Shown piece after piece: positions 6,501 through 61,846 of a DNA stretch of 64,000 nucleotides. The notes under the pieces are model-generated. The model had not been told where the DNA came from and did no database searches. It worked only from the letters and a program-made list of their open reading frames with translations. Where the stretch lies: NCBI GenBank assembly GCA_051362555.1, contig CM120641.1:40926401-40990400 (forward strand), given 5' to 3'. The stretch comes from Lingula anatina (taxonomy: Eukaryota; Animalia; Brachiopoda). Every line of letters starts with the position of its first letter. Within the stretch, counting starts at the first letter, position 1. The translations under genes and the position numbers were made by a program.

Positions 6501-9251
6501 GTGCCCATGTGGCTTTCTCCCATTGGGTGACTCCTGCTATCGAGTTTCTAGAATAGCTGCAAACTTCACGCAAGCGTCTTCTACATGCGAAGAAGAAGGT
6601 GGCCATCTTGTCACCATGGCATCCATTTTGGAATTTGAGTCTTTGATCAACTTTGTAAAGTAAGTTTGAGATTTTGTGACATTGGCTTTATGGTAAGAAA
6701 GGTAAGATTAACACAGTCAGAGCACCACCTTTTAATATGTTTCTTTTTGTATACGCTAATTTGATTATGAAAAATATATATTTAAAAGACTCCCTTGAGC
6801 GGCAAGTATACTTTATACTTGTGTTTACATGCACTCAAGATTATTATAAATAATGATGAGATTTTTTTTTACCGACCACGCCAACGGGAAAAATACGACA
6901 AATTGATGGAAATTTTGCCACATTTGATTACTTTTCCAAGTTTAAGTGTTCCCACTGGCCACATTGCGGAGGCATATTGGATAGGTTTTGCACAGTTGAC
7001 ACCTGCCGACCAGTGGGGATGGGTAGATGCGAGTCCAGAAGAATGGACTATGTGGGGTCAAGGTCAGCCTAGTGTGAACGCTACAGAGAAAGGCTGCGCT
7101 GCGGTAGCAGTAGGAGAGAGTGTTTTTTGGGAGGCGTTCAACTGCAGTCAAATTTTCAACTTCATCTGTGAAATCTCTCTTGCCGGTATGTTAATACTTA
7201 AGGGTGTTTTCAAAAGGTAATGCTGATTTCGTAACCATGTCAGTTTGTGTCATATAGGCATTGGTTTAGGAACATGTAGAAGACGTTCAGTTTTAATTCC
7301 ATGTAACAAGACAGACACCTATATATATATATTTGTTATTTTTTTATTTTACTTGATTTCACTGTTAGTAATCAAGTTAAATTAACTTACTTCAGTTGTT
7401 GTCCCTTTCACTATTTCCCAAAAATACTTTGACTTCTTCTTGAAAAGGGTCAACATTCACCAGTTGGATGGTGTTAACTGTGGGAATCCTACATCCTCTT
7501 AGACTTATATACTTCGTCACTAGAACGCTTTACACAAAATTTTCTTTTTAGATGAGGAAAGTAAAGTGCAGAATAGTACCAATTCCAGTACAACAGCAAG
7601 CAGTGGAGGAAACTGGAAATCACAAACGTCTACTCCTTCAGGATCGCCAACAACAACCTCAACCATTGAAACAACGCCGAGAGATAATGCTTATGTAGTA
7701 ACAACATCAACAACATCAACTGCCGTAACAACTCTCAGAACAACATCTACTGCCCCAGCTACTCCCACAACAACAGCTACCATTCCAACAACTCCCACAA
7801 CAACATCTACCGTTCCAACAACTCCCACAACAACAGCTACCGTTCCAACAACTCCCACAACAACAGTTACCGTTCCAACAACACCTACGACAACATCTAC
7901 CGTTCCAACAACACCCACAACAACTCCGGTACCTAGTGTTCAAAAAGTAGCCACAACAACGTCAACTGTTCCAACAACACACACAACATTTACTGGTCAA
8001 CGAACACCAACCACCTCAAGTACGAATATTGCTACAACAAGCAGCAAGGGAAGCACCGCACCTGCAAGCACCACTGACACTACTGAAACAACCGAAAAAG
8101 GATATGGTTTTGCGGTGACAACTGAAACTGCAGGTGAATGTCTGTAACTCGCCATTCTAAATGTTCCAAATTCCAATGCTTTATATAATGAAGTAAGGCA
8201 GCGTTTCCTATTATAAAGTTGATATTATGCATAAAGTTGATATTATGGATTATTCAGAGGTTGCAATGTTAGGATCATGTCACGATAAAAGTAAACACAT
8301 AATCCCCTTACTTATTCATTTTCTGTCACCATCAGTTTAAGTAGTCCTGGAAATTTACATCTGTATTATTAGCGTGTCTCCTGACCCCTATAAACTAGGG
8401 GTTTGCTTTTTGGACAGAACACCACACATAAAGTTTTACGTCTTTTCAGAAATACGTTGTGGCGAGGTACGCAATTTTTCAACAACTTACAACAATGGTA
8501 CAGGTTCTACGTACTATATTCCGGGTTCTGTGGTGTCATATGTTTGCCATGGCAACTTAACCTTTCTTGATAACACAACGTCACGTATTCGCACCTGCAA
8601 CAACCAAGGGGAGTGGATTCCATATGAAATACCAATGTGCAGAGGTATAGCCTTCTACACCTATACAAATTATCATTATAATTGTCATCATCATTATTGC
8701 TAAAGAGACACAGGTCCACATTGACACAACTTATAATATCGTCCACATTCTATTTACCGATCTGCCATCTAAACAATGGAGACGATCACCACTGACAGCG
8801 ACAACAGAATCTGTCGGGTTGGGTTTTGGGTTTCGGTCCAAGTAGAAGTTTTAAGAATATGCAATCATTGTAGCTTATGAAAGGTTTAATATTTCACATG
8901 TACTCATATTTTAATCGGGATGATTTTTGCGTTCTAATTGATTATCTGTAAATCACCGAAAAAGGTTGTCTTATATAGGAAAAGCGCCATACCTCGTGTA
9001 TGTCAATTTGGCGCTTTTATTACATAGATAACATTTTTAATTTCTTTTTATTTTCAGAAGGATTTCAGGGCCCAAAACCTCGAAGATCAAAGCGCCCTGA
9101 AAACCCAAAAGAAGCTGAAGGAGCACCCGCCATCGGATCATTTGGCCTGCTAGCCGTCCTATCTATAGTGTGCACTGTAGTGGTTTCAGATGTCCCCACT
9201 TTTTACCGTCAACTTCGGATAATGAAGCGTAACATTTTAAGGACCTTTTAA
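503..9251 (+). CDS. Gene A (5'-partial): multi C-type lectin / Thr-rich mucin / Sushi single-pass membrane protein, 6 CTLDs, ~1220 aa in window
   Basis: 16 phase-compatible GT-AG exons: 503-683, 876-1117, 1262-1451, 1670-1914, 2530-2679, 2860-3010, 3434-3675, 3823-4021, 4803-5047, 5402-5564, 6064-6305, 6461-6659, 6941-7185, 7552-8133, 8450-8644, 9058-9251 (TAA). CTLD hallmarks: CPCG...DSCY, A...C...GHLVT, YWIG, W.W, FICE. Sushi: RCGE..VSYVC..RTCNNQGEW..PMC. TM: AIGSFGLLAVLSIVCTVVVS. The start exon is upstream of the window. Confidence 0.88.
2700..7240 (+). repeat. Recent intragenic tandem duplication (CTLD-pair unit 2, ~2700-5110, vs unit 3, ~5250-7240), introns included
   Basis: Exons and flanking intron sequence align, e.g. 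acagaattctg(t/c)aatctggattagtaata at ~2730 and ~5277, and gtaatactgatttcgtaacc vs gtaatgctgatttcgtaacc at ~5092 and ~7217. Matching exon lengths 242/199/245. Confidence 0.9.
7745..7990 (+). repeat. 30-bp coding tandem repeat (TVPTTPTTTx) in the gene A mucin stalk
   Basis: Repeated accgttccaacaactcccacaacaacagct-like units in exon 7552-8133. Confidence 0.9.
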
Positions 9252-33708: not shown

Positions 33709-36700
33709 TCAAATCATTGTTTGCAAGCGGCCAGTTACAATCCCATTAGGTACTGCCGGTGTTTTTGGTTTTATGACCAGTTTTCGTCTCAGTGCCGTGT
33801 GCAGTAACATGTCTGCTATTTCAAAAAGTGTCAAAAAGCTGGCCCCAACAAATAATCCAAGGGATCCACCAATGTCACCTTAAAATGAAAATAACAAAAT
33901 GATAAACAAGTTTGATAAAAAAACTTTGATTGGTCAAAAGATAACTAGCACGTAAAGTAAAGCTCTAAGTCTTCATGAACAACCTACACTTTTAGACCTT
34001 TACACTAGAAATAATAAGTTATCTTACGAACATTCTTTTTCATTTTCTGAACATGTGAACTTTATCATCATGCTGCATAGAAAATAAGCAAAAGAATAAG
34101 TCGTACTACTAATTGTTTAATGTTTTCATTGACTAAAGGCAAATGCTTTTTACGTAAAAATCATATCCGAGGTATCTGGCTTTAATATCAACACGTACTC
34201 CATAGCTTGTTTATGTCATATGCCTTTTGTTGTTCGATCTCTTCAATCTGGAGTTCTTTGAGGAAAACATCAAACTGCAAGAAGTTTTCCCTGGAAATCG
34301 ATGTATTAAAAGCGTTTTATTGTAGGTTAACATAATATGGTGACAATTACTTAAACGGTAATTTGACAATTTGAAAATTAATATTGTTACGTGTACGATA
34401 GAAATACGTCTTCTTATATTATTTTACAAAATCTTTGCTCATAAAAATGAGTTCCAATCTGTGAAATACTAACTAAAATGGTTCAGACCTGAAGAAAGCT
34501 GCATCTATCCCATTCCCCTTGAGATATTCTTCAAGTTGATTCTTCAATACAACAAAAGCGTCCAGAAACTGTTTATCTGTAGTTCCCATAACGCCAGACA
34601 AATCCGACTGGCTTTGCAGGTTCTTAAATATTCTGTTCAGTCTGCTACATGTTTCGTTTAAACTTATATCTGAAAAGTCTCCGTTTAAACGGCTCAGAAG
34701 GACGGAATGATTTCGCGACAGAGCGTTGACGCGTTCTGGAGAAGTGTTGAGAAGATGTGCTATATGCTCAAGAATTTTTCGTTTCTCGCTGCTGGTAACA
34801 TTGTGACTACTAACCAACATTACGTCACTGTTAAGTTTCTGGTAGAACTTCTTCAATGACCCTTCTTCCAGCATCGTTTTCCAAACGGCAATGTAATTTT
34901 TTCTAAAAACTTCTAAGCTGTCTGTTATGTCACGTGACCTGGAGTGCAGTCCATTCAAAGCTTTTCTTAATTCCTGGAAACTGGTAACATGTGACTCATT
35001 TAAAAATGTACTGGCTAAATTCGTCTTGGTAAGCGACTTGTTGGAAATATAGTCTTTTGCATATCTCACCAGAGAATATACGTCTGCCCAGCTAACCAGT
35101 GCCTTCGATTCAAGACTATTATTCACAATTTTTAAAAGGAAATACAATGAGTCACGAACTTTGATTAAATTTGTGACACTGTTATTAAACCTTTCGCGTT
35201 TTTCGTTCACAATGTCTTCCGACCTTTTAACAAGTCTATCATGTAGAAGATATTTGCGGTAGTTAAATGCTCTTGCATTTCTTGCAATCTGAACTTTGCA
35301 TTCCTCGAATCTGGTCCTATTAAAATACCTGTTATCCAGTACATTTTTCGACAAATTTCTTAGAGCAATGATGCTGTCAATATAACTTTGTGTAGCAGAC
35401 GATAGATACATCAAGTATTCCTGTTTATAAGGATGGTATTGAAGCATTTCGGGGTTGTTGAAAGTGTCATCGTAACGCTCGTCTGGCAAAGTCACAATAT
35501 AATTTACAATTGGTGTTCCATTAGTGTAACTGGCGTGTACTGCAGTTATATTATCTAAGGCCCTTAGTGCCAAATATTGTTTTTTTAGGAGATCCATGTC
35601 TATAATTTCGAACAAAACGGTTCGTAAACAGCATTTTTCCTGCTCCGGGGTTGCTGTAGTTGACCTGATGGCTGAATCTTCGAAAGCGCCCAATGTTTCC
35701 TGATATCCTGACGTCACGTGACTAAAAGTCCGTTCTTCCATTACCTCCCAACCTCGCACAAACCCGTTATGAATAGAATACCAAAGTTTATGTAATGCGA
35801 CATCTTGAAAGTTGACGCGCGGAGCAATGGTGGCTAGCAGTTGACCTATCTCATGGCGCAAATGTTGTAAAATCTTGGACATTTGTTCCAACATTGTCTG
35901 TATCGCATCTGCTGCTCCGCTTACTTTTAAAATGGTTTCACTGTCCGCCCTAAAAGTATTCTGGTTCTTTTTTTGAAATATGTCACGCGCGGCTATATAG
36001 CGACGTTGTAGTTTTGTCACCTCTCTGTCGTTCAGTAAAGTTTCCACTTGGAAATTCGAAATGGATGCGTATGATACAGATGGGTCATAGATGTGCTCGT
36101 CACATGGGACAGGGCAAGGGGATTCCATTGTGTCGCGGCGGTAGGTTTCTGAAGTGAAATGGACAGATAAATATATGATTGTTGAACAATATGTGATTAA
36201 ATGGAACATACACAAATGAATTTATAAATTTAGACAGATACTGTAGAAACTGGAGATATGTAGATCTATAAGCATATGCGGCAATGAAACTCTATTTCCG
36301 TTAAAAAGGGAGTAATCAACATTGCCTTTGGTCAGAAAATTGACCTCGTCCAACTAGATGCAATGTGGCTGTCAGAGATATAGCGAAGAATGACACAGCT
36401 AAATTTAATGAGTCGGAAAATCCGCACACAATCAGGTTTTAATCATCCACGGTTCCGGTCCCCATCAGTTACGTACCTAGTAACGGCACGACACAAGAGA
36501 TGTACTGGGTTAAGTTGCATATCGGGAGTTTTACTGAAAAAGACAGACAATCAATTAGGCCACTTAGTAATGTACGTGCAATACCGCTAAGGTATGACAG
36601 ACAGACGATCGATCTTGTGTGTGCATGTGCTAATATTGAAATTGGTGCTACTCGGATTCAGAGAATTACAGCGGCAAACGACTGGTAAACACTACCTGGC

Positions 36701-38830
36701 GGTGAGAACTCCATAGATATGTCAATACAACCACATACGTCCGTCATAGCGCGGAGTTTGCGGTCGACAGAACACGTGTGACTTGTATAATGGTCAAAAT
36801 AATTCAGCGGTATGCTGTCGTCACACTGCCCATAAGGAGGTGGAAGGTTTTTGACCTGCAATCAAGATATAAGAGAATTCAAAACTTTGATAATGGTGGC
36901 AGTCGGTTGAAACTAATGAAACAAACTGCAATCTGTCCATTCATCAGATGTTCATTAATGCCATCGGAATCACTTTGTTATGCGGGCAGTAAAAATTTTC
37001 GTAGGTGCACCGCTTCATCCTATTTCAGCACTCATTTTGCACTGGGAAGGGTTGAAATTACTATAAGCCCCCTTTATTTGGGACATATAAAATAGGAATC
37101 ACTAGAGTATTTGTCTTTTAACCGTTACCTTAAGCATAAACAAGCCTAAAAATGCATGCGAACCGGGAGGTATGGCCAGACCCAAGTCTTTAACCAGTGG
37201 TACGTCAGAGCTGTCGTGGAGTAGTATTTTGACACCGGCAGCATCAGTTGGCCCGGACATATATTCATACTGTTCCACGTTCAGTGTTAAACGTAACCCG
37301 TGCTCGGCTCCTGAATGTGGTAAATAAGATGTAAATCAACCCAAAATTTACAATTTATTTTAAAGAGGCAATCGCAGAAACCTACTTTAATTTCAGTTGC
37401 AGACCTGATGTACATTCACTATTTCTCACTTTCTTTTAGCATTTCGGCAGAAGTAAGGATTTATAAAATGTGATGGTGAAATTGGGCATTTAAACTTCTC
37501 ATAAACTTAACTGATGACTCTCTAAGATTATCTGTACTTTACCTGTCTGCGTGACAATCCTTGGGTGCAAATCTGCATTAAACGTAAAGCAAACGCCTTG
37601 GTCAGTGAATGTTTTAGTTAACGAACCCTCAGCACAATCTTTGCCACCCCAACGACAACTAAAGAGAAAAAATAAAGTGTACAGTCAATTATAAAATGTA
37701 ACTGTTTATCCATGCTATTTTAATGATGGTACATGCATGGTATCTCTTAAGCAGACGTTAAATCATTTTATTAGAAGAAGAAATATGATCAGGTATCATC
37801 ATTACACTCTAGATCAAAAAGACGCGTCTGTTAAAACACTGGTCACTGCTTGTATTTCAAACATATTATATATGGACGTGTCCGTGCGCTCTTTAGAATA
37901 TTTAAAAAAAAATCTCTGAGAACTGATGTGAAATAAAGTTAATAATATTCACGTGATATTAAAGCTGGCAGATATTGTACGTGCTACATGTAAAGGAAGG
38001 TGCCCCAGAACCTGTACCTGACAATCATGTCTTCCTCCTCGTGTCCTGTTCTCTTCAGAAGGTCCATAAAGGAGTGGGACCCCAAGACAGCCAAAGACTT
38101 CTTTCTTTCATCGTCACTGGCACCGTACATATCAAAAAGCGCCTCGTACCAACCATTTTTGGCAGCACGCGACGCTCTGAAATTAGTAACAGACGTAGGC
38201 CTATATTAGACAAATGCGTATAGCAGGGGGTTTGGGGTTTTGTTATGTTATAAAAAAGCGCACCATGCTTATGGAATTGCATCCAAATGAAACTTAATAA
38301 GTATTTGCGATACTTTGCAATTTTCTTGTAAAAAGATAGTATACTTTTCGCCGGTATGATTAACTGCTAGGAATTATCATTATTAATTTAACTGCACTGT
38401 AGATAATTTTCTAAACCCACGTTTGTCAGTAAAAAGTACAGACTGTACAAAGAAGGGCACGCTAAATTGCGTACAGGGCCAGCGCAAACTATGAGCTCAG
38501 CTTTAAACTCATAGTTTGCGCTGGCTCTGTACGCTGAATTACCGGCCGTTTCCTACTTTAACGTTCAATTTTCGCCCCTCGTTCCCTAGTGTTTAAGTAG
38601 GAAACCGGCCACTAATTCAGCTTGGATTACAGTATGCGCATGGCTCAACCATATTTTTCTACCTGAAAGCGTTCTGGTTACAGAATGTGACCGCGGGAAA
38701 GGTCACATTGCTGACGTAATTAATTTTTACGTTGACCGCCACGGGACAGGACAGGAAGAGAAGAAGACTCATCACCACTTGGTAAATGAATAAGCTGAAT
38801 CCTCCAAGGACGAGACCTATCCAAATAATC
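33709..38830 (-). CDS. Gene C: ASIC-like DEG/ENaC channel (~920 aa identified, N-terminal exon not located) with a very large knuckle-region insertion
   Basis: Exons on the minus strand: 38830-38663 (TM1 IIWIGLVLGG.. and FPAVTFCNQNAFR), 38176-38018, 37658-37543 (CRWGGKDC..TDQGVCFTFN), 37310-37129 (GLRLTLNVEQYEY..GVKILLH..GLAIPPG), 36855-36696 (LPPPYGQC..CGC), 36533-36477, 36148-34489 (CPVPC..YDPSVSYAS plus insert), 34290-34199 (RENFLQFDVFLKEL..EQQKAY), 33878-33709 (SDIGGSLGLFVGASFLTLFE, TGA). All phases are compatible. Confidence 0.92.
38469..38621. repeat. Two abutting inverted repeats (hairpins) in an intron of gene C
   Basis: gcgtacagggccagcgcaaactatgag (38469-38495) / ctcatagtttgcgctggctctgtacgc (38508-38534), 26 of 27 complementary. 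Then gctgaattaccggccgtttcctactttaac / gtttaagtaggaaaccggccactaattcagc (38533-38621). Confidence 0.85.
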
Positions 38831-46723: not shown

Positions 46724-47378
46724 ATGTATGTGACTGATTGGTGTTGATATTCATAATAAAATTTCAAGAGTAAACATTTTTATGTCATTGGTTGCAATCT
46801 AATTTAGATGAAACATGGCACTTTTGTTTAGATGTAATTTCATCATGAATATCTTGGGCTAATGGCTCACGAGGTTGAATATAATGGGAGTAAGCCCCCC
46901 TTCCCCGGCTCATCCGCCGATGTTTTAAATTGCCTTCAAGTGGTATGCTCAACATAAAAAGAAAACTCACAGAGCTCACACTTTCACTAATGGAAAAATA
47001 TAATCAACACCCCCCCCCCCAAAAAAAAAAAAAGTAGGAAAAAAACTCATATAACAGCAGTTTGTGGCACAAGTATAAATCATGGTGAATTGTGAGGAAC
47101 AACAGTTGCAATCAAAACGCTGCGTTGGAGTGTTATCGACTTTCGATAGTCAACTTGTCGTGTGCAAAATTCTTGAAAGGCGGCAAAGGGTCAACGTGCC
47201 GTGTGCAAAATTCTTGGAAGGCGGCAAAAGATCGACAAAATACTTATTTGACTGAAATCACAAAACAAATAGTTCAAGGCTGTTCTTTCCATTGATCTCA
47301 CTCCCTATGAAATACATTAAGCAGTAAGACGGTTGTCTGCCACCTCGCTTTGTGTGCAAAAGTCTCCAGCGAGACAAC

Positions 47379-50300
47379 ATGGCGGCGTCCATCGCAGGGA
47401 AAGGTCTAGAAACAAATGACACAGTTTATGACGACTTTTCTGATGCATTTTCAGTTGTTCAGAAAGAGTTAAATCATCTGAAATTTTGCTATGATAATAC
47501 TGTGTATCAAATTGAGAAATTCGTGAAAACTTGTCCTCATGTCAATATTGAACAATTCCTTCCTAAAGACACACAGGAACGTGTTCAACGGGTCATCACG
47601 ACGCAGCCGGCAATCATTGTGATCGGACAGTCAAACTGTGGAAAAAGCAGTTTAATAAATGAAATTCTACGAGGTTCTATTCTCCCAACCGCAGAGGTAC
47701 CGTGCACTTCGAAAATTGTTCGACTGAAACACAGCCGTGAGCCATACTTTCAAGAATTAGACAAAGATGGTAACTGTATTGAAGGAAAACCGAAGGAGAC
47801 GCTAACTAAAAAGTTAAAGGTACCTCGATCAGTTGTTGCTGTACCGGGAGCAGAGCGGAATGACAAGAGTAAAGTTGAAGGTGTTGTGGAAGTGGGGTTT
47901 GATCACCCCCTGCTGGAAAAGGGCATTTCTATCGTTGATGCACCTGGATTCAGTGAAAATGCTACCTTGGATTCTCTTGTAACTCAGTGTGTTGAAGGAA
48001 TACTGGGCGTGATTATTTACGTTATCGATGGACAGCACGGTGTCCGCCAACAGGTAGGCCGCGTGTTAGTTGTTTTTAAATGTCTTTAATATTTTATATT
48101 TCTAGCCAGGGGGGGGGGGGGGGGGGGGGGGGGGTTCGGGGGGTTCGAAAGAACCACCCTTTTTGCTGGGAAAAGGTCCACTCTGGGTAAAATTTGACCT
48201 AGGTACATGAAGTTTTTATGGAAAAAGGTCCACTTTTTCAAAAAAAGAACCCCCCTTTTGAAATTGCTGGCTAAGGGCCTGAGTATTTTGCACATACCGA
48301 AAAGTGACACGTATATAATGCGTTGGATAGTTAAAAAACGTTTATTCGAAGGCAATTGCATAATGCAATCTACCCGGTAATGCAAATTTCTGGTTACAGG
48401 ACAGAAAGAAAATAACCGAACTCCGGAAGAAAGTACCAAGAGCTACCATATTTTATGTTTGCAACAAAGTTGAAGTAAATGAAAAGGCGCTTAGAATGGA
48501 TCAAACAGCCGAGGAAGCTGATTTGCCGAGAGAAACCCCTGATAAAGCAGCAATGACATTCAAAGCATTGGCTCACAGTGGTCTACTGGACAGCGAAACC
48601 AATACCGACGACAATCCGTTTTTTGCTGCGGTGTCGGTGAAAGATGTTCATCGATCGAGAAAGAGAGGTCAAAAGGACGAACGTTTTCAACAATTCACAA
48701 TTAAGTTTTTGAAACTGGCAGTACAGACTATGCACAGCCACACAATTGATGCTCTATTGTCCGTGGTAGACATGCATAACGTTCTTTTCTACGGTATGTG
48801 TGGCTCACCAACTCAAAGGGCATTACTCTCGCATTTCATGGCCGAGCTAATAAAGCACTCCTTCGAATTCTTCGACAAAACAAAGAAAGCCATTAAGATA
48901 CGCAAGTCAGTGCTCGTGCATGTGGTCGAGAAAACATTGGCTGACAATAAACATGAAATTATTCGAGACGCGATGAATATGAATTTTTTGCCCATAGTTG
49001 GTGATACAGTCAGGAGAAATGAAATCATCCTTCAGTGCAGGGAGCAAATAAAAGATCACATCGTCATTAAATGTGACACACTGATAAGAGCAAAAATGGC
49101 AGCCACATTCGACGAGATAAACAAAATCTGTCAAAGAGATCTTCGGGATGTATTAGTTCACATACGTGACGCATTAGGTTATAGCATTTGGCACGATATA
49201 ATGGGGTTTCAACAGAGCATTCTTACCTGTCTCAACTTTACGGATAGAAATGTTCTGGTTTTAACCGAAACAATGTTTGATATACTTAAAGAAAACACGT
49301 TGACATTTCTAGAATATATGCAAGGGTTGCATGTCACCAAAGAGTGGAAAACCAAAGTAGCAGAAAACATTTTTTCACTTATAGACCCAAGCGAAACTGC
49401 AAATGATGCGGTGAAACTTATGAAAAAGAAAGTGGCTAGCGCACGAGAACATTTCGAGCAAACCCTAAAAAACATGGACAGTGCCGCATCAGCCATAGGC
49501 AAAATGAGCCCTCAAGAGCAAAGATCACTCGAAAAGGTGTCCCCTATTGTTGCACAGAACAGCTGCATGGCTATGGCTCTTCTGAATAACAATTTATATG
49601 GTCTTCTAGAGTTTGGGGAGACTCAAAGCACCTCAGATAAAAGCCAAGTTAGACTGGTGACCAACCCTGCTCAACTAGTAGGAAGATATGGAGAGTTCGC
49701 ATATGTGGGGAAGATGGTCCAAGCAACTGATCTTCATCTTCTTCCACCAAACGTGGCAATGGGTTTTCTCACTGCAAGGTATGAAGGAAAAAAGTATATA
49801 CGTCTTTTCTTCACGCTTTAATTCACAGAAAGCTAACTTATCAAGGAAGATTTTCGTCAGCCCGTCAGTTCTTTTTTGAAAGTTTTATTCAGATATTTCA
49901 GTTGACAGCTAAATGGAATACTGAAAGTAATTCATTTCTGTCAAAAAAGTCACTGTATTCTCGGAGTAAATTTATCAGTTTAAACAAAGGAAGGGTGTTA
50001 CACAGAGCATTAACTAGGGCAATGATAAATGTATAAATATATATAATAGATAATTTATAAAATCATGAAAAGGAAATAAAAAGATTACTTGATAACACTG
50101 GAGAAGGAACAATTCCCTTTGTCCGTTTTATCCACTAGTTTCTGTTCTACATATTTTAGGCTGTTACCTCACAATGCAAACGTCCTTCACTATCTGGACG
50201 TGGTGATAACTACTGAGTTCCAACCTGTTCTGATCAGACAAAGATACACCATCAACTTAATGGATGCAGTGCAGACAACCAAGTGCATACAAGAGAAAGA

Positions 50301-51121
50301 GCGCAAAAGAATACTAAATGATGTCATTCAGGGCTTGGAGCATGTTCTGTATTTTGCAGTAGAGATAGATCTGAAACCTACCCATGTGGTCGTAAGTAAA
50401 AAAATCTCTCAATATATATTCTCCCAATATATACTCATAAGATGTCGATAATTTCTGGCCTTTTTTTTTACATAACCCCGCCAAATGTAGTCCCCCTTTT
50501 ATATTTATTTCTCCCATCCATAAATTGTCGCAGTTTGATACAATATTGTCAAAGTATAAGAGGTTGTCAGAATATTTTCAAATGTCACACTCAATGAAGC
50601 ATTGATTGTTTGATCTTCATCGTATAACATTCTCTTAATACCATAAAAATTACATATATCTATTGTTTTTGTCAAACTATGGTCAGTATTATTTCAAAGT
50701 CAGCTTAGTTCGTTATATTTTGCAGACCTGCTCGCAAAAAGATGCCCGTGAAAGACAATGGAAAATCCTGCTAGGTCCCCGCGAAACCAGTAACGTGTAT
50801 CCCAACGGCTACCATCCTTTTCATCTCCCCCCAGAGGCATTTGACAAAAGCAGCGTAGGTTTTGGTGAACATCAGTACGTCTACAGTCTAGGCATTCTCC
50901 TTTGGTTGCTGTTTAATCCTGAGTATGCGTGGCCAGAATTCGCCAGACCAGAGACTTCCCGGGATGATTTTATTCTAGCCGTGGATGAAGGAAACAAACG
51001 CCCCGACGCTACCAAATGTTCTCCCGCAGCTCAAAAACTGTTCGAACGCTGTTGGAATGCGGACCAGACAAGAAGGCCAAATATCAAGACATTTATAAAG
51101 GAACTAACCAAAATATCATAA
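47379..51121 (+). CDS. Gene D: DSTYK(RIPK5)-like protein, dynamin/mitofusin-type GTPase + helical stalk + PSEUDOkinase (893 aa)
   Basis: Exons 47379-48053, 48400-49778, 50160-50391, 50726-51121 (2682 nt, open). G1 GQSNCGKSS, LPTAEVPCT, G3 DAPG, G4 NKVE. DSTYK-like stalk VTKEWKTKVAE..IDPSETA..HF. The kinase C-lobe is recognisable (PPE, VYSLGILLWLL, RP..C..LFERCW..RRP), but the Gly loop, alphaC-Glu, HRD and DFG are degenerate. Confidence 0.88.
48103..48281 (+). mobile_element. G-rich hAT-like MITE fragment in gene D intron 1
   Basis: tagccagg(G)n..ggttcgaaagaaccacccttttt..aaaaggtccact x2..ctggctaagggcctg; same family as 21526-21651. Confidence 0.6.
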
Positions 51122-51298
51122 TCTGTAATGGTTCATTGACATAAATGCTTTCTACGAATTTTGCGAATGAATAAGCTCTGTCTCTGTAACGTTGATGATC
51201 CAATACGAGTTACCTCATCAGTGATTGAAAATGCATGCCAGTATAGTGCGAATTAAATGTTCATTTTAAGCGGATGTGTTTATTTTAAACTTTTTTAA

Positions 51299-54105
51299 TA
51301 GTCCATGGGCCAAATACGGAAACCCTCCCCCCCCTTAGTGATATTCATTCACTATGTTTTTCTGATAGCTTATGTCCTGAGTTTAGATTTTCCGCTTGTT
51401 TGCCATTAAACTGGTGGTGGGTGTGTGTGCTACAGCCGTTGCCGTGGTAACGTCTGAGATTAAAAATTGAAAATTTCTGAGACCAAAAAATATTAAATTA
51501 TTCAAATGTATTAAGTAAATGGAATTATAAATCATTTCAGATGTATAGGTTAAGAGCTGCACTATACTTCATGATCCTCAAAATTCTCCAAGATGGCTGT
51601 AATTTCAAGATGGCGGCCAATTTTTGCTAATTTTTGAGTAATTTCAATTATTTTTAATATTTGAGTTTTAATTCAATTATCAAGGAATAAGAATGTGGGA
51701 TATGCTTTGATGCACCGGAATTGCATAAAGTCTCTACTACTTGCTACCTAAGTATTTGTTTTAGATGCAACCTTTTAATTTTGTTGTAAAACGGTGGCCA
51801 AAATACAAGTCTTTTACATTCTGTTGTCCCAACTGGAAAGATGCCATATTTATTATCAAAGTTACATTCTTTATTACTTTTAATAAACTGAATTCGAACT
51901 TAGGCCTTTTCCAAACAATTTTGCTTAATTCTGATTACATTGGGACTTTCAAAATTCAAAATGGCCGCCAATATGCTTATACACACTGGCTAAAAATGAT
52001 ATAATATCATATATTCTTCCAACAGAATTTTAATTTTAATTATCTCCAACCAACTTAGTCCCATTAGTGATTTTTGTTTACTATGATTTTCTGGTAGTTT
52101 AAGCCCTTAGCATTTATTTTTCGCTTGTTTTTCATTAAACTGGTGGTGGTTGTGAGTATTACAGCTGCTGCCATGGTAACGTCTGGGTTTGAAAATTGAT
52201 ATTTTTGAGACCAAAAATGAAAATTAAATATTTCAAATGCATTTTAATTCATGGAATTCAAAATTATACCAAATGTGTAAATTAAGTGTGCTATACTTCA
52301 CAATCATCAAAATGTTCCAAGATGACAGTAAATTCAAAATGGCTGTCAATATTTGCTCATTTTTGAATAATTTTGGGAATTTTTTGATATTTAAGTTTTA
52401 ATTTAAATATTTAATTATTATTTATTATTAAATTACAGAATGTCACTGAAATTTTCCGGGTGATAATCGCTGACCGAGACCAGCCTTTCGTATAATTGTG
52501 AAAAGGTGATATCTCCATGCCCAATATCAATGGCAAACCAATCCAAAACGACGGCCCCCGCTCTCTTTATGTCTTTAATTGTTGTGTATTTTGAAAGTAA
52601 TCCTAGAGATGAATTTGACGGCAAAGCGGACATATTTCCAAGTGGTGATAATACGTATGCGCAGAGAGCTCATTTTCCGGCAAATTCAATAACAGCGTTT
52701 GCGACAACCTACTTCGTTGGGGGGGGGGGGGGGGGGGATTTTTTTTATTTTTTTCGGAGAACAGACGAAAACCGGTGCGCGCGCAGGATGTCATCCCTAA
52801 AAATAAAAAAGTCTGGCCAAATAGGTGATAGGTGTGACAGATTCAGCTGTTGCCATATTAACACAGGGGTTTTGAAAAAATAATTTCTGAGACCTTTAAA
52901 TTGTCATGTATTTCAAATATATGAACTCAATGTTTTGCAAACTTTAAAAAAACTTGGACCTCAGTTATTAATGAAAATATTTGCAAAAAATAATCATAGT
53001 TAAATTACCAAAATGGCAGCCAATCCAAGACGGCGACAGGTTTATGTTAATTTTACATCTTATTACTGAAAGTAGCTTTTTGTAAACTTTAAAAGCAGCA
53101 TTGGAATTGAAAAATTATATATGCTGATATGATGTGAATTGCATAATTACTGTCTTCAGTGATTGTTACTCCTATACCCTCTTATTAAGTGTCAAAACCT
53201 GAAACCCTATGTGGCCATCACAAAACATGGTTTATACATATTGCTGAATGAATATGTTACATTTTCGTTACAAAATTCCCGATTTGCTGTTTCTGTTAAA
53301 CTAAATTAACCTATTAATATTTCACTGGGAATTTCAATTTTCAAAAGATTTTCGACCAAATTATATTAACTTGGCCATTCCAAAATTCAACATGGCCACA
53401 AATGGCCATGACAGTGCAGGTATGGATTTTTACTGCAATGATATTAAACAACGCAAGAAATAAACAATTCTAAAAGTTGTGTTGTTAATTTCAATCAAAT
53501 ATGCCCTTTCTACACTGCTTTCATGGAAACATTTGTCCATATTTAGTTAAATATTTAGAAATGGATGAAATGTCTTTTTAATGAAGAATGTTCATTGGAA
53601 AGCCAGTTAAGATTTGCTGTTACCCCTGAAACCGAGTTTTTGTTACAATCTAAGATGGTGTTCAGCTATATGAATAAATGAAATAAAACATTTACATGTA
53701 CATATACCACAACTCAGCTTCAAACTGCTAGAGAGGTAAAATTATATCCACATTTTGGAAAAAATCAATATATCCACTAACTTCAATTTAATATTTTTCT
53801 ACTTGAAAATTTTATAATACTTTACTTAAAATATAAATGTATAGAAATGCAAAATCACCATCAATATTTGCAAACTACAAAACTACCAAAATTTAGTTTA
53901 TGTATTTGAAATATTTAAGATTTTGTTGGTCTCCAAAATGTCAATTTTCAACCCGTGTGTTACCATGGCAACGGCTGTAGCACACATACCCACCACCAAT
54001 TTAATGGCAAACAAGCAGAACATAAAAGCTAAGGACCTAAGCTATCAGAAAAGCATAGTGACCGAAAATCACTAAGGGGGGGTTCGGTATTTGGCCCATG
54101 GACTA
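51299..54105. mobile_element. 2.8-kb non-autonomous DNA transposon with ~210-bp TIRs, TAG..CTA termini and a TAA target duplication (Academ-like, tentative)
   Basis: taa|tagtccatgggccaaatac ... gtatttggcccatggacta|taa. TIR similarity extends over ~51299-51510 and ~53900-54105. An internal direct copy of the left end lies at ~52062-52400. Confidence 0.85.
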
Positions 54106-54315
54106 TAATGATCTGAAAACTCAAACGCAAAATGTATGTTCAAACACACGCTGGGGTCATAGATTTAGATAAAAGGAGTACAAAATGTCTTAGATGCCGT
54201 TTTTAGACTGGCACAACCGCTTAAGACTGTAAAAATAGTAAATTTTACCTTTTTTTAAATTGTGCTACTTGCGATGTGCAATGTAAAAAACTTAAATCCA
54301 GTCTGGACCTGGTTT

Positions 54316-54467
54316 CCCAGCAGGCATAGTAACGTTGGATCAACGTTGAAAACAGGTTGATACGTTGAATTGCCGTTGATCTACCTAAATTCAACGTAAA
54401 ATTAACGTTGATCCAGCCACGTCAAAACCGTCTTAATGTGACGTTGGCTCGACGTTGTATTTTGGTC
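54316..54467. mobile_element. One-ended fragment of the CCCAGCAG / caacgttga (EnSpm/CMC-like) family
   Basis: cccagcaggca followed by multiple caacgttga/acgttg sub-terminal repeats, as at 18796-18893. Confidence 0.6.
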
Positions 54468-55223
54468 ATTGACACAACCTTGCAGACATGGATTGTAATT
54501 TAAAATGTTAATTATTGAAAACGTGATACTTTGTTTATCAATACTGTAACTAACCTTATCAAAATAATAAAAAGTGTTTTAAAGTAAAAGTGACAGTTGT
54601 TTTGTGTCTTAAGTGAACTAGTGAATTTTCTTAACTTGTTATTCAGAAATACATTCCAATAAACTTCCTTGCAAGGTCAGTTAACACTAGGATGAATAAG
54701 GCGCTGTAAGTGTGATTGAGTGAGGTTAATAAAGTTGACAGTTCTCGGTACCCTGTCATAGATAGATAGGTTTAGGTGACTGTGACTTTATTTGTTATAT
54801 TATTATTATGCATGATAACACAACATCTCTAAAGGGATAAAATATATACTCTCTGGGCACCTATAGTGAAAACTCCGGCGGTTTGGTGAAGTGAACTGAC
54901 ATTTTCCTTCTAGCATAAAGGCTAAGGTAAAGTAACCTTTATTGAAATAGGAATTTTTTATCCTTTGTTTGTCAGGGTCTAAGTGACGTCAATAGCGATA
55001 GGTAAATACTGCCAACAAATAACCTGATATCATATTTCGTTCAATGAATGAGCTGGGGAGCAGAGACTAGGTTGGAACAGCCATCACCTGGTTCTTAATC
55101 CTAAGTTTTCGTCGTCATAATACCAAAATATAATAGGCAGCAATATGCAGGATTGAAAAGGAAAGCACCAGTTCTACTTTACCGCAGCAAACTGCATCTA
55201 TAGGGAAACATCGACAATTTACA

Positions 55224-58200
55224 ATGGCGTCACTTGCTGGCGAAAAGTTAGCTGTTGCACTCGAGAAATTTCAGAAGGCTCTAAACCATATCAAAGAATT
55301 GAAAGAAGAAACGACATCGTGTTTTCAAGAAATAATGAGAGAAATACCAAACATGGCTATGGACAATTTTTTGCTTCCGGCTGAGAGACAGGAGGTGGAA
55401 GATGTATTAAACTTGAAACCGTGCGTGATTTTTACTGGTCAAACAAATTGTGGCAAGAGTTCTCTTATAAATGAAATTCTACAAAAGTCGGTGCTGCCAG
55501 CTAATGAAACGCCTTGCACCGCACGACTGGTTAGGTTGACATTTTCCGAAAATCCGTATTACAGAATCGGTGAAGACGAAGAGGTGGCAATGAAGGGTTC
55601 AATTCCACGGCAAGTTGTACAATTAGGTGTAGACGACAGGAGGGACGCCAATGAGATAGCAAAATACGTAACATGTGGGATAAAAAATGGCTTATTGAAA
55701 TCAGGACTAGACATTATTGACTCCCCTGGCAGAAATGAAAATGAAGAACTGAATCAGCTTCTGAAAAACGAGGTAGAACGAATCCCCATCTTAGTGTACG
55801 TGGTTGACGGCCACAATCAACTGACAATTCAGGTATGTGTTTTTTTGCTTGTTTAAAACTCTTAAAGACGGGTGCTTAATAATTATACAAACGAAGCACT
55901 TACATATTTAATTAAAAGTGCGTTTTAACAAAATTGCGTTTTAACAAAATTGAAAGGATGATACTACGCTTGTGGGGCTAGTTACTGATAATGACGAGAG
56001 TACATATAGAGAATCTGTTGAGTCGGTGTTAAGCTGGTGCAAGAATAATGATCTTATCTTGAACGTAGCTAAAACCAAAGAAATGATAGTGGATTTTAGA
56101 AGGAATCAGAGTGTAAAGGTAGGCCTACCACTCACCATTGGTAATGTTGAAGTTAGTAGAGTAGAGGAATTTTAACTACTTGGTATACACCTTAACAGTA
56201 AATTGAATTGGAAAGATAACACCGCAAAGAGTGTAAAGAAGGCACGGCAAAGACTGTATTTTTTAAGATCATTGAGAACTTTTACTGAAAGCGTGCCTAT
56301 TTTAGTCAATTTTTACAGGTGTGTAATTGAAAGCATTCTAGCGTACGGAATTATAATATGGTATAGCGGAACAGCTGGGGAGGAAAGGAAGAAATTAACA
56401 AACGTTGTAAAAACTGCAAGCAGGATTATTGGGCAGGATCTCCCCAAGCTGGATGATATTTTTAAAGACAGAATGGAGAAAAGAATTGTCAACACCATGA
56501 AAGACTCTTTCCATCCTGCAACATCTCTTTTTACTTTTTTACCAAGCAACAGTAGACTTTTAACTTTTAAAGGCAGTAAACGCTTTCTAAACAGCTTTTA
56601 TCCAAGTGCAGTGACGCATTTTAATTTGAACTCAAAACTAAATTCTTGATTAATTTATTTATTGTATTATTTTATTATTTTACTCTGTATATTGCTCCAA
56701 AAGGAAAATGATTTCCGATTTTTATAATTGGCTAAATAAACTCTTATATTAATCAGTATCAATGTTGGAATACAAATCAAGATTTTTACTAAAATGCTGA
56801 AGCTTTTGTGAAAATGTACCTGTTGTGCATAGTATCAGCATGTCTTCCGCTTACATACGACATGGAATAAAAAGGTGGTGGCATATTTTTTCTCTGCTGT
56901 GAATTTGTTTGAGGAGTGTAGCTCCACCTCTCTCTTCCATATTTATTCTTTATCAAAAAGTTATAAAGTCTTTTATATTCATGGTATTGCTTTAAACGTG
57001 TTTTTAAAGGTTTGCATTATTTCTAGATGAACTATTAGCACAATGTGTTATTTTGATTTTTCTGTCTTTTTCATTCTTCACTCTGCCTCACTAAAGATTG
57101 ATTGTTAAAATGTTTCTTATACTGCCTCTGTTATTGGCCAGATAGTAGATGCCCCTGTGCCAATGTGCCTTTAAAGATACAAAATTTTAGACATCAATAC
57201 AATATGCAGGGGATCCAGGATTATTTGAATGGGGGCACGAATGCAGGGCCGACCCCCCCCCCCTCCCACCCCTTGGCGTGGGTTCTCGGACCTGCTGAAA
57301 GGCCAGAAAAATATTTTTCTGGCCTTTTAGCCTTTTAACTGGGCCCTGGTATTTTAGAGGGCGAACGGTGTCATTTGGTACGGTTTAGAACTATGATTCA
57401 GCTAGAGAAATTTTAATTTCAAGAGAGGATCTTTGGTGTGATGTTTTTGAGAAAATGACTGGCGAAGATGTTGCCTAGCTCATATCTGATTCTGGGATAT
57501 GTTGGTGGTTACACTTGACATAAAAAAAGGCTCCATTGTGAGTTCTACTGGTGTAACCTACTTTCGTTCCATATAAACCATACATAATTCTGAATGTTTT
57601 ATCTTGTTGGCGCATGCAAGTCATTTTATGACGATCCGTTAGATGTATTTATAACTTCAGAGTATCTTTTCTAAGAAAAAAAATCTGTTTATGATAGATT
57701 AAGAGACGAGGAGAAATATTAAGTGAAAAAAGAGGCAGGTATATGTCCAAGTACCTTTTGGCAATAGGTCATATAGACATGCAGATATACTCCAACAAAT
57801 GAAAGATTCTTTTTCTTTAAAAGGAAAATACATGTAGTATTAACATATATCATGCAGTATTACTTAGTGATGGTGAAATCAAAAGTTGACTTGATGTTCA
57901 TTGACCCTTTTTGGCGTTTTGGTTGTCACATGTCAATTATCTAGTCAAAAGCAAGAAAAATGGTATCAAAGAGTGCAAAAACTTTTAACCATCATACAAT
58001 ATATACAACCACTGAAATGAGCAATTAATAGGTCAACAGACATAAAAAGGAGACCAGTTCTATTCAGTTGACCATAGTTATAGACTAAAACAGATTAAGT
58101 GACCTTTTAACGCTTTATCACTGATAGCACAATGAAACATTTAAAGCGTTTTAATATGTTTTATCATGCACACATACAATTTAACTTAGAAACAGGCCTA

Positions 58201-59393
58201 ATATACATTTTGGTTAATATTTATTGAATTTGAACGAAAGTTCTTTAATGATTTTATTTATATTGAGACGGTATGTTTAGCTAAGCTACTGTTTGTTACA
58301 CCCCTGACACATTTCTACCTCTACCTTCAGCCAGTTCATTTTCAGCAAAGAAAGAATTCATGAATCCTCCGTCACACTAGAGGCGAATAAGCAAGAATGC
58401 AGTCGGAAAGCCAATCCTTTGTGCGTTCCTGGATATTCGAAGAGCATTCTAAAAATTCAGAGTGCATTCCAAATAATTTTACCCATTCTTGTGGAATGTT
58501 TTGCTCATGTATAAAAACTCTCGAAGTGCATTCCAAGTGGAAAATTGTCGAGTGGCATTTGAATAGTATTCTAACTGCACTATGACTGCTTTCTAAATAA
58601 TCTCACGGCATTCCGACAGCATTCGAAATATTCTGATCACATTCGAGGGAGAACCAAAATGGCAAGACACTTCAATTCCTGCTGGAATGAGCCAGAATGC
58701 ATCTGGATCCTATTTTAGCCAGCAATCGAAGTACACTCCTACGGTATTCAAATTGTATTCTAAATATTCTGACTGCATTCTGACAGCATTATTGATATTC
58801 CTAGTTTTCCAACTACATTCGAGCTGCATTTGAGAGCTAATACAGCCAAAATGTGCACTAATCATTCCAGGCGGATTCAACCGCATTTAGAGCATTCCAA
58901 CGGCATTCTTACAAGAATTTGGGTCAATTTGAAATTTCTTCCCGAATGTAGTACGAATTTTTAAATTTAGTCATTCCGGCTGGTTCTGATTGATTCCTGC
59001 TGATTCCGCATAAGTGTGACAGGGGCTTTACAGGAGAGATAAAATGACGTTTAAGGGATAATTACTGTTCAGTTTGGCCGAAAAATTAATTTCCCTGTGG
59101 TAAAGGACAATTTTCCCATACTTACCAATTGTAAATGAATCCATTCCAACATTCAAAATTAGTCCCTGTTTTTTTTGTTTTATTTTATATATTATTTTTT
59201 TGTAATAATCTATTAGGAGATTAATTCAGAGTGTAGCCATCTATTGAGGTCACTGGATGTGATGACAAGTACAAAATAATTGTGTTAACCGCCGCTTTCG
59301 GGGCAAAATAGAATTTATTGTACTTCTATGAGTTATATACAATGTATTTATTGTGAAATATTGATATTTTACGAACGGTCGTTATCCCTTCAA

Positions 59394-59431
<38 letters not shown>

Positions 59432-59432
59432 G

Positions 59433-59468
<36 letters not shown>

Positions 59469-61846
59469 GGCCAAATACACTTATAGGTTTTTTTAGATTG
59501 GCTTATACTTCAACAGTTTTAGCGCACTTAAATTAGAAATATGGTAAACAAATTGGCACTCTGATAAACTTCAAAGCAAATTAACTGTATGCTCTGTCAT
59601 GCTTATTTTACCATCATGACTGTCTTTTGCCTTTATGCAAAGATTTCTTCAAAATCAAATATACTTTGAAGTCATCGTATAATTCTTTTCCAGGATGCAG
59701 AAGATCTAAGGACGCTTTATAACCAGTTCGTAGTTTTTTACGTGGTCAGCAAAGTCGATTCAGAAGATGACAGCGATTCTGATAGCGACTCTGAATCTGG
59801 AGACGAGAAGGCAACACCCGCTGGAGTTAAACAAGAGCGCATGGCAGTAGTCTATAGCCGTCTTGTAGAAGAAGGCTTATTAGATAAGCATACCCGGATG
59901 AACGAGTGTCAGCTTTTTCACGGTTTATCCGCGTGGAAACTTCATGAAGCCAGAGAGTCCGCGATGGCAGACAGCAAACATACAGTGTATCTTGCAGATT
60001 TTGAAAATTTCAAAAGTTGCCTCATAGGACACATTGAAGAAATTTTGGAAGCGAAAGTAACAATAGCGTGTAATAATCTCGCTAAAGCTCAAAAACGTTG
60101 CATTGATTCGCTTTTGTCTAAAGCAGAAGATCCGTTAACAATAGAAGAAACTTTAAAAGATATTGAAAAAATCAAACTATTGGAGCAGGATTTCTACCGT
60201 AGGGTTGAACAAAAACTGACGGACAAAACACGCATGGAAATGTCCCTCAAAACTATTTTAAGTCAATGCCAGGAGGAACTGGTTGAAGACATTGGTCAGA
60301 TCACATTTGAGAGACAACATAACATTCAAGAAGGGGCGTATGTTACTGGTGAAGAAGCCGTTAAGAAATGTGGAGATCACGTGAAAGATATCTTGATTAC
60401 ACGACTTATCGATAAATATCAAAAAGGATTAAAGAACATATTCCAAAATGAAGAAAGCTTGATGCTTGAACTGCAGAGAACACAAAATTTGAAAAACACC
60501 AGGGAAGGTATCAAGCATGCGCTAGTATTAGTCTGTTCATTGACACAAAGTCTCTTTGACAGCTACAAAATACCACTGGATCTAAGCAAATGTGTGAGGA
60601 ACCTTACATTTTGGGGACGCCTAAAAGAAGGTTTATGGAACTTTTTCCGAGCAATAGCCCACCCGATAGACTTTATCCGTGGTCGAACGATGATAACAGT
60701 AAAATGGAAGCAGGGCATAGCCAGGAAATTTTTAGCTTCAATTGATACAATGAATTTAGCTTCCGAAGTTGCTGAAGCACTCAAGAGTCGTTTTGACGTC
60801 GCCCACATAAATTTTCAAGAGAATATAATTGAACACAAAAACAACGTTGAAAGATCTTTGCGCCTCAGTAAGGAGCAGCTATCTTCCATTCAGCAGGTCG
60901 CACCAAAGATGGCCTCAGTTGAACTCCGCACCATCGGCATTTTAGATGTATTAAAGTACGGAACCCCGACATTTCTGAGACAGATCGGAGAAGGAGGGCA
61001 AGGGGAGGTCTGGGAGGTGACAGCGAGAGATAAGGCTAATTATGCTTTGAAACTCGTTGGGGACCCTGGATCCGAAGACCTCCTGGGAAAGTTGGCCCTT
61101 GAAATACATTACACGCGGTGAGTTTACTTGTGGTACAATTCTAGTAAATGGGCAATGCATCTGACCGTATTTTACACGTAAAAATCTTATCTTTATCGAA
61201 AAAATCCTTCTTCTCATGAGTTATTTGTCAACACATTCCTTACTAGGATTCAATCTTTTGTAATATTTCTAATTAAATAACTTGGTTTTAAGGAAATGAA
61301 TATTCAATGAGAGCGCCGTTTGCTTCTTGTCATTTTAGAATGAACATTTAAATCAGACGTTTTTTGAAAAATATAGCTTTGTTGGATAATTAGACATGAA
61401 AACATGACTTTGGGGTCTTTTCAAACCCGTGTAGCGCACCTCTTCAAACGATTGTGTAAGACCATGGCATTTACCCTCGATTTTGTTTTTTTTAATGAAC
61501 TTTGCATCATTAAAAATTGCTTGTCTTATTGATTTATCGATTGATATGGAACACCAAAGCAATGTTCTGGGAACGTATGACAATGTGTTACACTCTTTCG
61601 TCTTTTAGAAGCATCTCCCACGAACACGTAATGCCGGTCCTGGGGAGTTTTGTTATTGAAAAAGATGGCAAGCAGCACTTAGCCGTCCTCTACGAACTCA
61701 TGGAAAGTGATGTTATGCATATGCTTCGTAACGACCCAGGGGATCTAAAGATTCGGCTTGGAATTGGGCTGCAAGTGGCAAGTGCTTTAAACTACATGCA
61801 CAGCGCGGGACTCATGCATCGAGATATCAAACCGGAAAACGTGTTG
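55224..61846 (+). CDS. Gene E (3'-partial): DSTYK(RIPK5)-like protein, dynamin/mitofusin-type GTPase + helical stalk + probably active protein kinase
   Basis: Exons 55224-55832, 59694-61117, 61609-61846 (757 aa); the last exon is not found in the window. G1 GQTNCGKSS, LPANETPCT, DSPG, SKVD. Kinase: IGEGGQGEVW, YALK, LALEIHYTRS (DSTYK has LALEFHY.RS), HRDIKPENVL. Intron positions and phases match gene D. Confidence 0.9.
55958..56745 (+). mobile_element. 5'-truncated, inactivated non-LTR retrotransposon (CR1/L2/Rex1-Babar group RT C-terminus) in gene E intron 1
   Basis: DDTTLVGL..WC..N.L.LNVAKTKEMIVDFRR..EEF*LLG..LNW..KKARQRLYFLR.L..FYRCVIESIL.YGI..W..HP..F..LPS..RF.NSFYP.A; in-frame TAA at 56173; AATAAA near 56735. 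Confidence 0.9.
57244..57348. mobile_element. Small hAT-like MITE remnant with internal palindrome
   Basis: cagggcc..ggccctg ends; palindrome aaaggccagaaaaatatttttctggccttt. Confidence 0.4.
58364..59027. mobile_element. PIF/Harbinger-like MITE with GAATGC/GCATTC internal repeats
   Basis: Left atcctccgtcacact vs right agtgtgacaggggct; flanks tga / tta (imperfect TWA); many gcattc/gaatgc motifs inside. Confidence 0.65.
59053..59390. mobile_element. Possible MITE with imperfect AAGGGATAA TIRs
   Basis: aagggataattactgttc vs gaacggtcgttatccctt. Confidence 0.4.
59398..59470. repeat. Compound (TA)n microsatellite, duplicated with an attag spacer
   Basis: (ta)n attagcc (ta)n attagg. Confidence 0.9.

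Follow-up and report, generated by a model that had tools for sequence, protein, structure and literature searches.

Within a 64,000-nucleotide stretch of the brachiopod Lingula anatina (assembly GCA_051362555.1, contig CM120641.1, positions 40,926,401 to 40,990,400 of the forward strand; hereafter the window), two neighboring genes, D and E, encode proteins in which a predicted dynamin-like GTPase is followed by a helical stalk and a kinase fold. An earlier note on this DNA had read them as a two-component pair of an active kinase (E) and a pseudokinase (D). Our results point instead to three ancient lineages (E, D and F), of which F is a further pseudokinase paralog, and, judged from sequence, the pseudokinase split is older than the cnidarian-bilaterian divergence. 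The canonical kinase DSTYK appears to be a GTPase-dead member of the same family. We tentatively propose, at somewhat less than even confidence, that E together with D and/or F forms a GTP-driven hetero-oligomer on a membrane, in which the pseudokinases would regulate the kinase of E. The exons of the two genes in the window are as follows.

47379..48053, + strand: gene D exon 1, with the N-terminal neck helix and GTPase motifs G1 (GQSNCGKS), G2 (PCT) and G3 (DAPG); Dynamin_N match, E-value 1e-18; covered by RNA reads.
48400..49778, + strand: gene D exon 2, with G4 (NKVE), the helical stalk, a low-confidence tip at about residues 485-535 and the start of the pseudokinase N-lobe; junction reads for introns 1 and 2.
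50160..50391, + strand: gene D exon 3, the pseudokinase up to the degenerate catalytic loop EIDLKPTH; junction reads.
50726..51121, + strand: gene D exon 4, without DFG; holds the conserved YPNGYHPFH motif of the activation segment, the C-lobe and the stop codon.
55224..55832, + strand: gene E exon 1, with the neck helix and GTPase motifs G1 (GQTNCGKS), G2 and G3 (DSPG); Dynamin_N match, E-value 2e-16.
59694..61117, + strand: gene E exon 2, with G4 (SKVD), the helical stalk, an amphipathic tip at residues 512-529, the Gly loop, beta3 Lys and alphaC Glu.
61609..61846, + strand: gene E exon 3, the kinase as far as HRDIKPEN, where the window end cuts the gene.

The coding sequence of D (2682 nt, 893 codons and a stop, no internal stop) is complete, and E, on the same + strand, starts 4102 nt beyond the stop codon of D and remains open for 757 codons up to the window end. 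All introns of both genes are GT..AG, their phases are 0, 2 and 0 in each, and they lie at aligned positions (after RQQ in D and TIQ in E, within an Arg after FLTA and HYT, and after THVV and ENVL, respectively), while the two proteins share 23.6% identity over 708 BLASTP columns (E-value 8e-48). The earlier note's description of adjacent, co-oriented and strongly diverged paralogs with equal intron positions and phases, and of a fully open 893-codon frame in D, is thereby confirmed. Exon 2 of E matches the Lingula anatina RefSeq protein P0001 (887 aa) at 100%, and the whole of E within the window differs from that protein at one of 757 residues; the RefSeq counterpart of D is P0072 (893 aa). 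Neither the last exon of E nor paralog F was found in the 64,000-nt window. The DFG/APE exon of E is located past the window end, and since ADFG and APE can be read from P0001, the downstream DFG exon on which the earlier note had made its proposal depend is present.

Judged by its motifs, E is a kinase with the full catalytic set: Gly loop (GEGGQG, 635-640), beta3 Lys (K656), alphaC Glu (E673), HRD (HRDIKPEN, 748-755) and, from RefSeq, DFG and APE. D is without the Gly loop, the alphaC Glu, the His-Arg and the Asn of the catalytic loop (His760 instead) and DFG, and retains the beta3 lysine K663, the catalytic residues D755 and K757 and a PPE motif. With the DFG Asp gone, D is a pseudokinase by the usual definition, and it may still bind nucleotide to some degree. 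What the earlier note had claimed of the two kinase folds, namely that E keeps GxGxxG, beta3 Lys, alphaC Glu and HRDIKPEN and that D has lost most catalytic motifs, holds with the survivors just named.

The AlphaFold2 models (predicted local distance difference test, pLDDT, 87.4 and predicted template modelling score, pTM, 0.87 for D; 84.3 and 0.77 for E) place in order a neck helix, the GTPase, a trunk, a return helix and the kinase fold. Foldseek aligned D residues 14-629 with BDLP over 700 alignment columns (E-value 2e-16), followed by IniA, the Campylobacter pair of dynamin-like proteins (DLPs) and mitofusins, with Mx placed below BDLP, IniA and mitofusin; the E model also matches BDLP (E-value 1e-13). 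Z-scores for D were level at 20-22 for MFN1 (22), Fzo1, MFN2 and BDLP (20.9 over 586 residues), and D residues 616-893 resemble BRAF (Z 19). Pfam gave Dynamin_N and kinase matches in both D and E, the Dynamin_N match being above cut-off in D, E and F, and a PDB sequence search returned, among the matches listed, kinase domains only. No transmembrane segment was seen in any of the seven stalks examined (maximum 19-residue hydropathy 0.75-1.42); the trunk tip, of low confidence in both models, carries an amphipathic helix at E 512-529 and a weaker one in D. From the G1-G4 motifs and the modelled neck and trunk bundles with a C-terminal return helix, D and E are predicted to belong to the dynamin superfamily, in the BDLP/mitofusin class, which agrees with the earlier claim of a dynamin/mitofusin-like GTPase, a helical region and a kinase fold in one chain.

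A profile search against 1.84 billion representative proteins (150 matches listed) led to a family set of 58 near-full-length members, consisting of D, E, two proteins from a word-indexed homolog search and 54 further profile-search rows; fragments, kinase-only matches and one 1557-aa chimera were left out. The word-indexed search was insensitive, with three full-length family members among 71 matches, and two others of its kind recovered the protein itself and nothing more. By motif, nine of the 58 have both GTPase and kinase intact, like E, 27 combine a GTPase with a pseudokinase, and 22 are canonical-DSTYK-like. GK[ST] is present in all 36 non-canonical members and DxPG in 32 of them. The canonical-like proteins carry live kinase motifs (GRGQYG, HRDIKLKN and DLG) and degenerate G motifs (DxPG in 0 of 22), and the four scanned gave no Dynamin_N match. 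One of them (P0135) has an N-terminal Ras-family domain replacing the degenerate GTPase start, either a real fusion or a gene-model error. An expanded F-type subgroup (P0003, P0073-P0076, P0079-P0082, P0097 and P0098, the named ones from Saccoglossus) has lost the APE segment, and the G3 glycine in two cases. The ESM Atlas also holds two clusters that combine Dynamin_N with a kinase, one mostly molluscan (62 members) and one mostly cnidarian (56 members).

The likeness to DSTYK (Dusty kinase, 'RIPK5', SgK496), after which both D and E are named in NCBI, extends over the whole length. Profile-to-profile comparison aligned the N-terminal region of canonical DSTYK with that of D/E/F along 587 columns (probability 100%, E-value 6e-57), and an ESM Atlas chordate DSTYK cluster matched our models end to end, with template modelling (TM) scores of 0.63 for E and 0.54 for D. 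Because of this homology, canonical DSTYK is by its motifs a family member whose GTPase is dead and whose kinase is live, whereas in E both are live and D and F have GTPase motifs with a dead kinase. The label "canonical" relies on what we take to be the motifs of human DSTYK and on a mite protein, the one member of the clade that could be named. D and E fall outside this clade and are not canonical DSTYK orthologs; of the earlier label 'DSTYK/RIPK5-like', the full-length relation to DSTYK stands, and canonical DSTYK itself forms a separate, GTPase-dead clade. Since DSTYK is placed apart from the RIP kinases in PMC9573974, comparison with RIPK3-MLKL can be an analogy only.

The main tree (21 rows; LG+G4, no mixture model, with long-branch warnings) resolved four strong clades. 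These are the canonical clade (support 100/100); an E-type clade (99/99) with Lingula, Macrostomum, Tubulanus, Branchiostoma, Saccoglossus and Ptychodera; a D-type clade (100/99) with Lingula, Nematostella, Branchiostoma, Glandiceps, Tubulanus and Lineus; and an F-type clade (100/99) with Lingula, Branchiostoma, Tubulanus, Saccoglossus and Actinia, on whose internal branching we do not rely. D-type and F-type are sisters (90/80). All three types are present in Lingula, Branchiostoma and Tubulanus, which represent three phyla; the 22 non-canonical members (of 36) assigned to species include no vertebrate, arthropod or nematode protein. The approximately unbiased (AU) test rejected a clade of Lingula D and E (p 0.0017; GTPase and stalk columns, kinase columns omitted) and, at full length, clades of Lingula D and F (p 0.0013) and of the Lingula trio (p 1e-6), so that a duplication confined to Lingula can be discarded. 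It is from these rejections and from the D- and F-types in anemones that we place the pseudokinase split before the cnidarian-bilaterian divergence. Outside animals, an amoebozoan protein (P0186, Cavostelium apophysatum) forms a single long branch and combines a dynamin-like GTPase with an intact kinase, a layout that may reflect an origin older than animals, a separate fusion or contamination.

Four RNA runs were mapped, on D only. D is transcribed and spliced in two of them, both from one study, with exon depth mostly about 2-20 and junction reads for intron 1 (n=15), intron 2 (n=7) and intron 3 (n=7); silence of D, which the earlier note had named as fatal to its proposal, is thus not what was found. 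At intron 3, two of the seven reads use the in-frame acceptor and the other five (two start sites, one run) use one that lies 16 nt further downstream. Deep read coverage at 48088-48281 was rejected as a sign of D expression, as this is an intron-1 repeat that collects hundreds to thousands of foreign-transcript reads in all four runs.

The pseudokinase of D-types has 11 positions that are invariant in seven of seven sequences, from anemone to amphioxus, among them D755, Y787, P788, P793, F794, H795, W822 and P832, and their activation-segment motif reads Y-P-x-G-x(1-2)-P-F-H. Mean identity among D-types is higher in the kinase C-lobe (25%) than in the stalk (15%). The invariant residues and the C-lobe conservation point to long-term constraint, and the neutral evolution of the D kinase exons that the earlier note had considered is not borne out. 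Read differences (40 shown of 234) include 30 in the D coding region, 11 synonymous and 19 non-synonymous. The resulting ratio of non-synonymous to synonymous change, about 0.48 (test against neutrality, p 0.047), is a weak and partial sign of constraint on D. Against this background, the idea that D arose by a recent duplication of E and is now decaying, to which its many missing motifs, low expression, frame-shifting splice form and that same ratio might point, has almost nothing left to recommend it: barring a systematic tree artefact it is refuted by the tree tests, since in these D clusters with proteins from anemones, amphioxus, hemichordates and nemerteans and not with E, and it is opposed by the open frame, the residues invariant across phyla and an excess of synonymous differences over the neutral expectation.

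Linkage of the types extends beyond D and E. Lingula F (P0130, XP_013414082.1), a pseudokinase, has the next accession after E, and the same 880,130-nt RefSeq scaffold carries D. The D-type (XP_019629833/4) and F-type (XP_019629835) of Branchiostoma belcheri are consecutive, with an E-type (XP_019629705) on their 8.96 Mb scaffold, and a single 297 kb scaffold of Saccoglossus carries two active and three F-type pseudokinase members, of which XP_002739352/353/354 are consecutive. Accession distance reflects physical distance only roughly, since Lingula D and E, neighbors in the window, differ by 27 accessions. The adjacency of active and pseudokinase members that the earlier note had thought worth seeking in relatives is, by this proxy, found as linkage in amphioxus and Saccoglossus and missing in Tubulanus. 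A fair reading of the accessions would be an ancestral cluster that survives in three phyla and has come apart in at least one species.

Our proposal of a membrane-bound hetero-oligomer starts from gene structure, motifs, predicted fold, the three old clades, the conserved pseudokinase residues and co-occurrence; the steps beyond fold and phylogeny are what we infer. By comparison with known fusion-type dynamin-like proteins, the amphipathic stalk tips would bind the membrane, and GTP would drive dimerization of the G domains, including mixed G-dimers. Because the kinase fold comes after the helix running back to the neck, next to the G domain, such dimerization would bring kinase and pseudokinase together, and the pseudokinases could then dock on E. 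Membrane tethering or repair would thereby be coupled to signalling by phosphorylation. Kinship with vertebrate DSTYK, which is located on late endosomes and lysosomes and promotes their fusion (PMC6981171), makes an endolysosomal compartment likely. DSTYK also phosphorylates STING on late endosomes/lysosomes, in an article whose main text does not contain the word 'GTPase' (PMC11933320). A defence role for D, E and F is plausible, and an immune role would be compatible with DynA (PMC8844932) and with DSTYK-STING.

The nearest structural class offers a precedent for working in pairs. Most bacterial DLP genes are paired, and Cj-DLP1/DLP2 hydrolyze GTP only together, form mixed G-dimers and tether membranes (PMC6104087). 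BDLP, IniA, Cj-DLP1/DLP2 and mitofusin/Fzo1 share with D and E the fold of neck, GTPase, trunk and return helix, the G1-G4 motifs and, at least in Lingula, linked gene sets; D and E differ in adding a C-terminal kinase or pseudokinase, in being without the mitofusin-type transmembrane hairpin, and in being metazoan and intron-containing. Roco proteins such as LRRK2 also hold a GTPase and a TKL-like kinase in one chain, and dimerization has been proposed to control the kinase. Their GTPase part is a small Ras-like ROC with COR, whereas D and E have a dynamin-like GTPase and a helical stalk, and we know of no dedicated pseudokinase paralogs among Roco proteins. HER3-EGFR, STRAD-LKB1, KSR-RAF, RIPK3-MLKL and ZED1/RKS1 each keep an impaired kinase fold with a conserved surface beside an active relative. 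Contact between the kinase folds would in D, E and F follow from anatomy, and to our knowledge none of the modules listed is built on a membrane-remodelling GTPase.

Several observations weigh against the hetero-oligomer. None of the eight named active-kinase members (of nine) is cnidarian, though anemones carry D- and F-types, so that an E-type partner may be dispensable for the pseudokinase members, and none of the five named Saccoglossus members is a D-type. The three types of Tubulanus are on three different contigs, hence linkage is not required; the amphioxus E-type is 128 accessions away from the D- and F-types; and linkage outside the D-E DNA rests on accession order and scaffold length rather than on DNA. 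The G4 motif of D is NKVE (Asp to Glu) and G3 of the amphioxus F-type is ESPA, so GTPase activity of each member is not assured. D reads are close to zero in the other two of the four RNA runs, and splicing to 50742, the alternative acceptor, would change the reading frame, so that D would stop ten codons on and lose its C-lobe.

The lost linkage in Tubulanus, and the presence in anemones of D- and F-types but of no E-type among the named members, suit the view that the members are independent paralogs, that is, stand-alone membrane-remodelling GTPases whose dead kinase folds scaffold other partners, with the cluster a relic of ancient tandem duplications. Stalks that are just 14-19% identical within a type (D-E 24%) also favor it, and slowly rearranging genomes retain old neighbors without functional coupling. 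The co-retention of three types in three phyla argues in the opposite direction, as does pairing as the rule in the nearest structural class (PMC6104087). We consider independence possible, although unlikely.

Variation within D bears on another view, by which the pseudokinase or stalk of D would be bait for pathogen factors and its engagement would trigger E. Plant ZED1/RKS1 is the model for such a decoy or sensor. Exon 2 holds all 17 amino-acid differences between the window allele of D and that in RefSeq, and 14 of these fall in the stalk, compared with one difference in 757 residues for E. F-types are expanded in hemichordates. K443E recurs in RNA reads and at least this difference is therefore a real allele. 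However, the variation spares the pseudokinase (0 of 268 residues), and diversifying selection on the stalk or a mosaic haplotype may each have produced the clustering. Having been kept for a very long time, mostly as single copies, these genes do not resemble decoys with fast turnover, and sites resembling the gamma-activated sequence (GAS), the interferon-stimulated response element (ISRE) or kB within 1 kb upstream of either gene (a palindromic GAS before each, and one ISRE-like) were not clearly above shuffles and were rejected as evidence. A decoy role seems to us improbable by this measure.

The conserved Tyr/Pro-rich activation segment of D-types, with its invariant Y787, could also be read as the target of an MLKL-like switch, in which phosphorylation of the D or F activation segment by E would free the stalk to tubulate, fuse or break membrane. 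The compact and well-defined model of D, with BDLP as its best Foldseek match, would suit such an effector. Nevertheless E has its own intact GTPase and stalk, which leaves no clean split between trigger and effector, and the D-type alignment shows no outstanding conserved Ser/Thr acceptor; this switch strikes us as distinctly improbable.

Some further features of the window surround the two genes. Two 41-nt tandem copies, 90% alike, lie at 47149-47230, about 150 nt 5' of the D start codon. The D-E spacer holds three copies of a 125-145 nt element (51328-51476, 52060-52205 and 53945-54082; 79-89% alike, one inverted), possibly ends of miniature inverted-repeat transposable elements. Intron 1 of E contains a 157-codon open reading frame (56176-56649) with a Pfam ALKBH8_N match (E-value 6e-12), a likely retroelement fragment given that this domain is, we presume, typical of reverse transcriptase ends in retrotransposons without long terminal repeats. 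Upstream, at 850-32774 on the + strand, are multi-exon genes with segments read by eye as C-type lectin, SRCR, sushi/CCP, CUB, thrombospondin and Ser/Thr-rich mucin-like, the lectin exons being in tandem repeat at about 850-7220; by this reading of the open reading frames, immune-type surface receptors adjoin the D/E cluster. An ENaC/ASIC-like channel gene at 34473-38209 on the - strand has an unusually long helical exon of 582 codons and a weak Pfam ASC match (E-value 0.005, below cut-off).

The pairing of a GTPase and a kinase domain was already visible in automatic Pfam annotation. Among the open-literature matches listed, subscription journals being outside the scope, none reports that DSTYK has a dynamin-like domain or deals with the three GTPase-intact lineages or their cluster, and a preprint on amphioxus interferon (10.64898/2026.08.17.745176) does not mention DSTYK. 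Human DSTYK has been linked with kidney malformation and spastic paraplegia, and also with lysosome biogenesis and STING signalling (PMC8490499, PMC6981171 and PMC11933320).

In conclusion, the presented data add a kinase-bearing branch to the animal fusion-type dynamin superfamily, with three lineages retained in several phyla and, by motifs, a reciprocal degeneration of GTPase and kinase between D and F on one side and DSTYK on the other. In its widest and more doubtful form, the proposal would be a signalling machine older than the cnidarian-bilaterian split, in which a polymer of three mitofusin-like GTPase subunits, one with an active and two with dead kinases, acts on damaged or pathogen-containing endolysosomal membranes, sensing or repairing them, and reports by phosphorylation, and of which vertebrates kept only the GTPase-dead DSTYK. 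If this is true, the N-terminal 600 residues of DSTYK would be the relic of a membrane-binding dynamin module, which would explain its lysosomal location, fusion activity and phosphorylation of STING. For the uncharacterized N-terminal two thirds of human DSTYK the reciprocal degeneration offers a direct and testable hypothesis, and amphioxus and Nematostella are workable species that carry family members.

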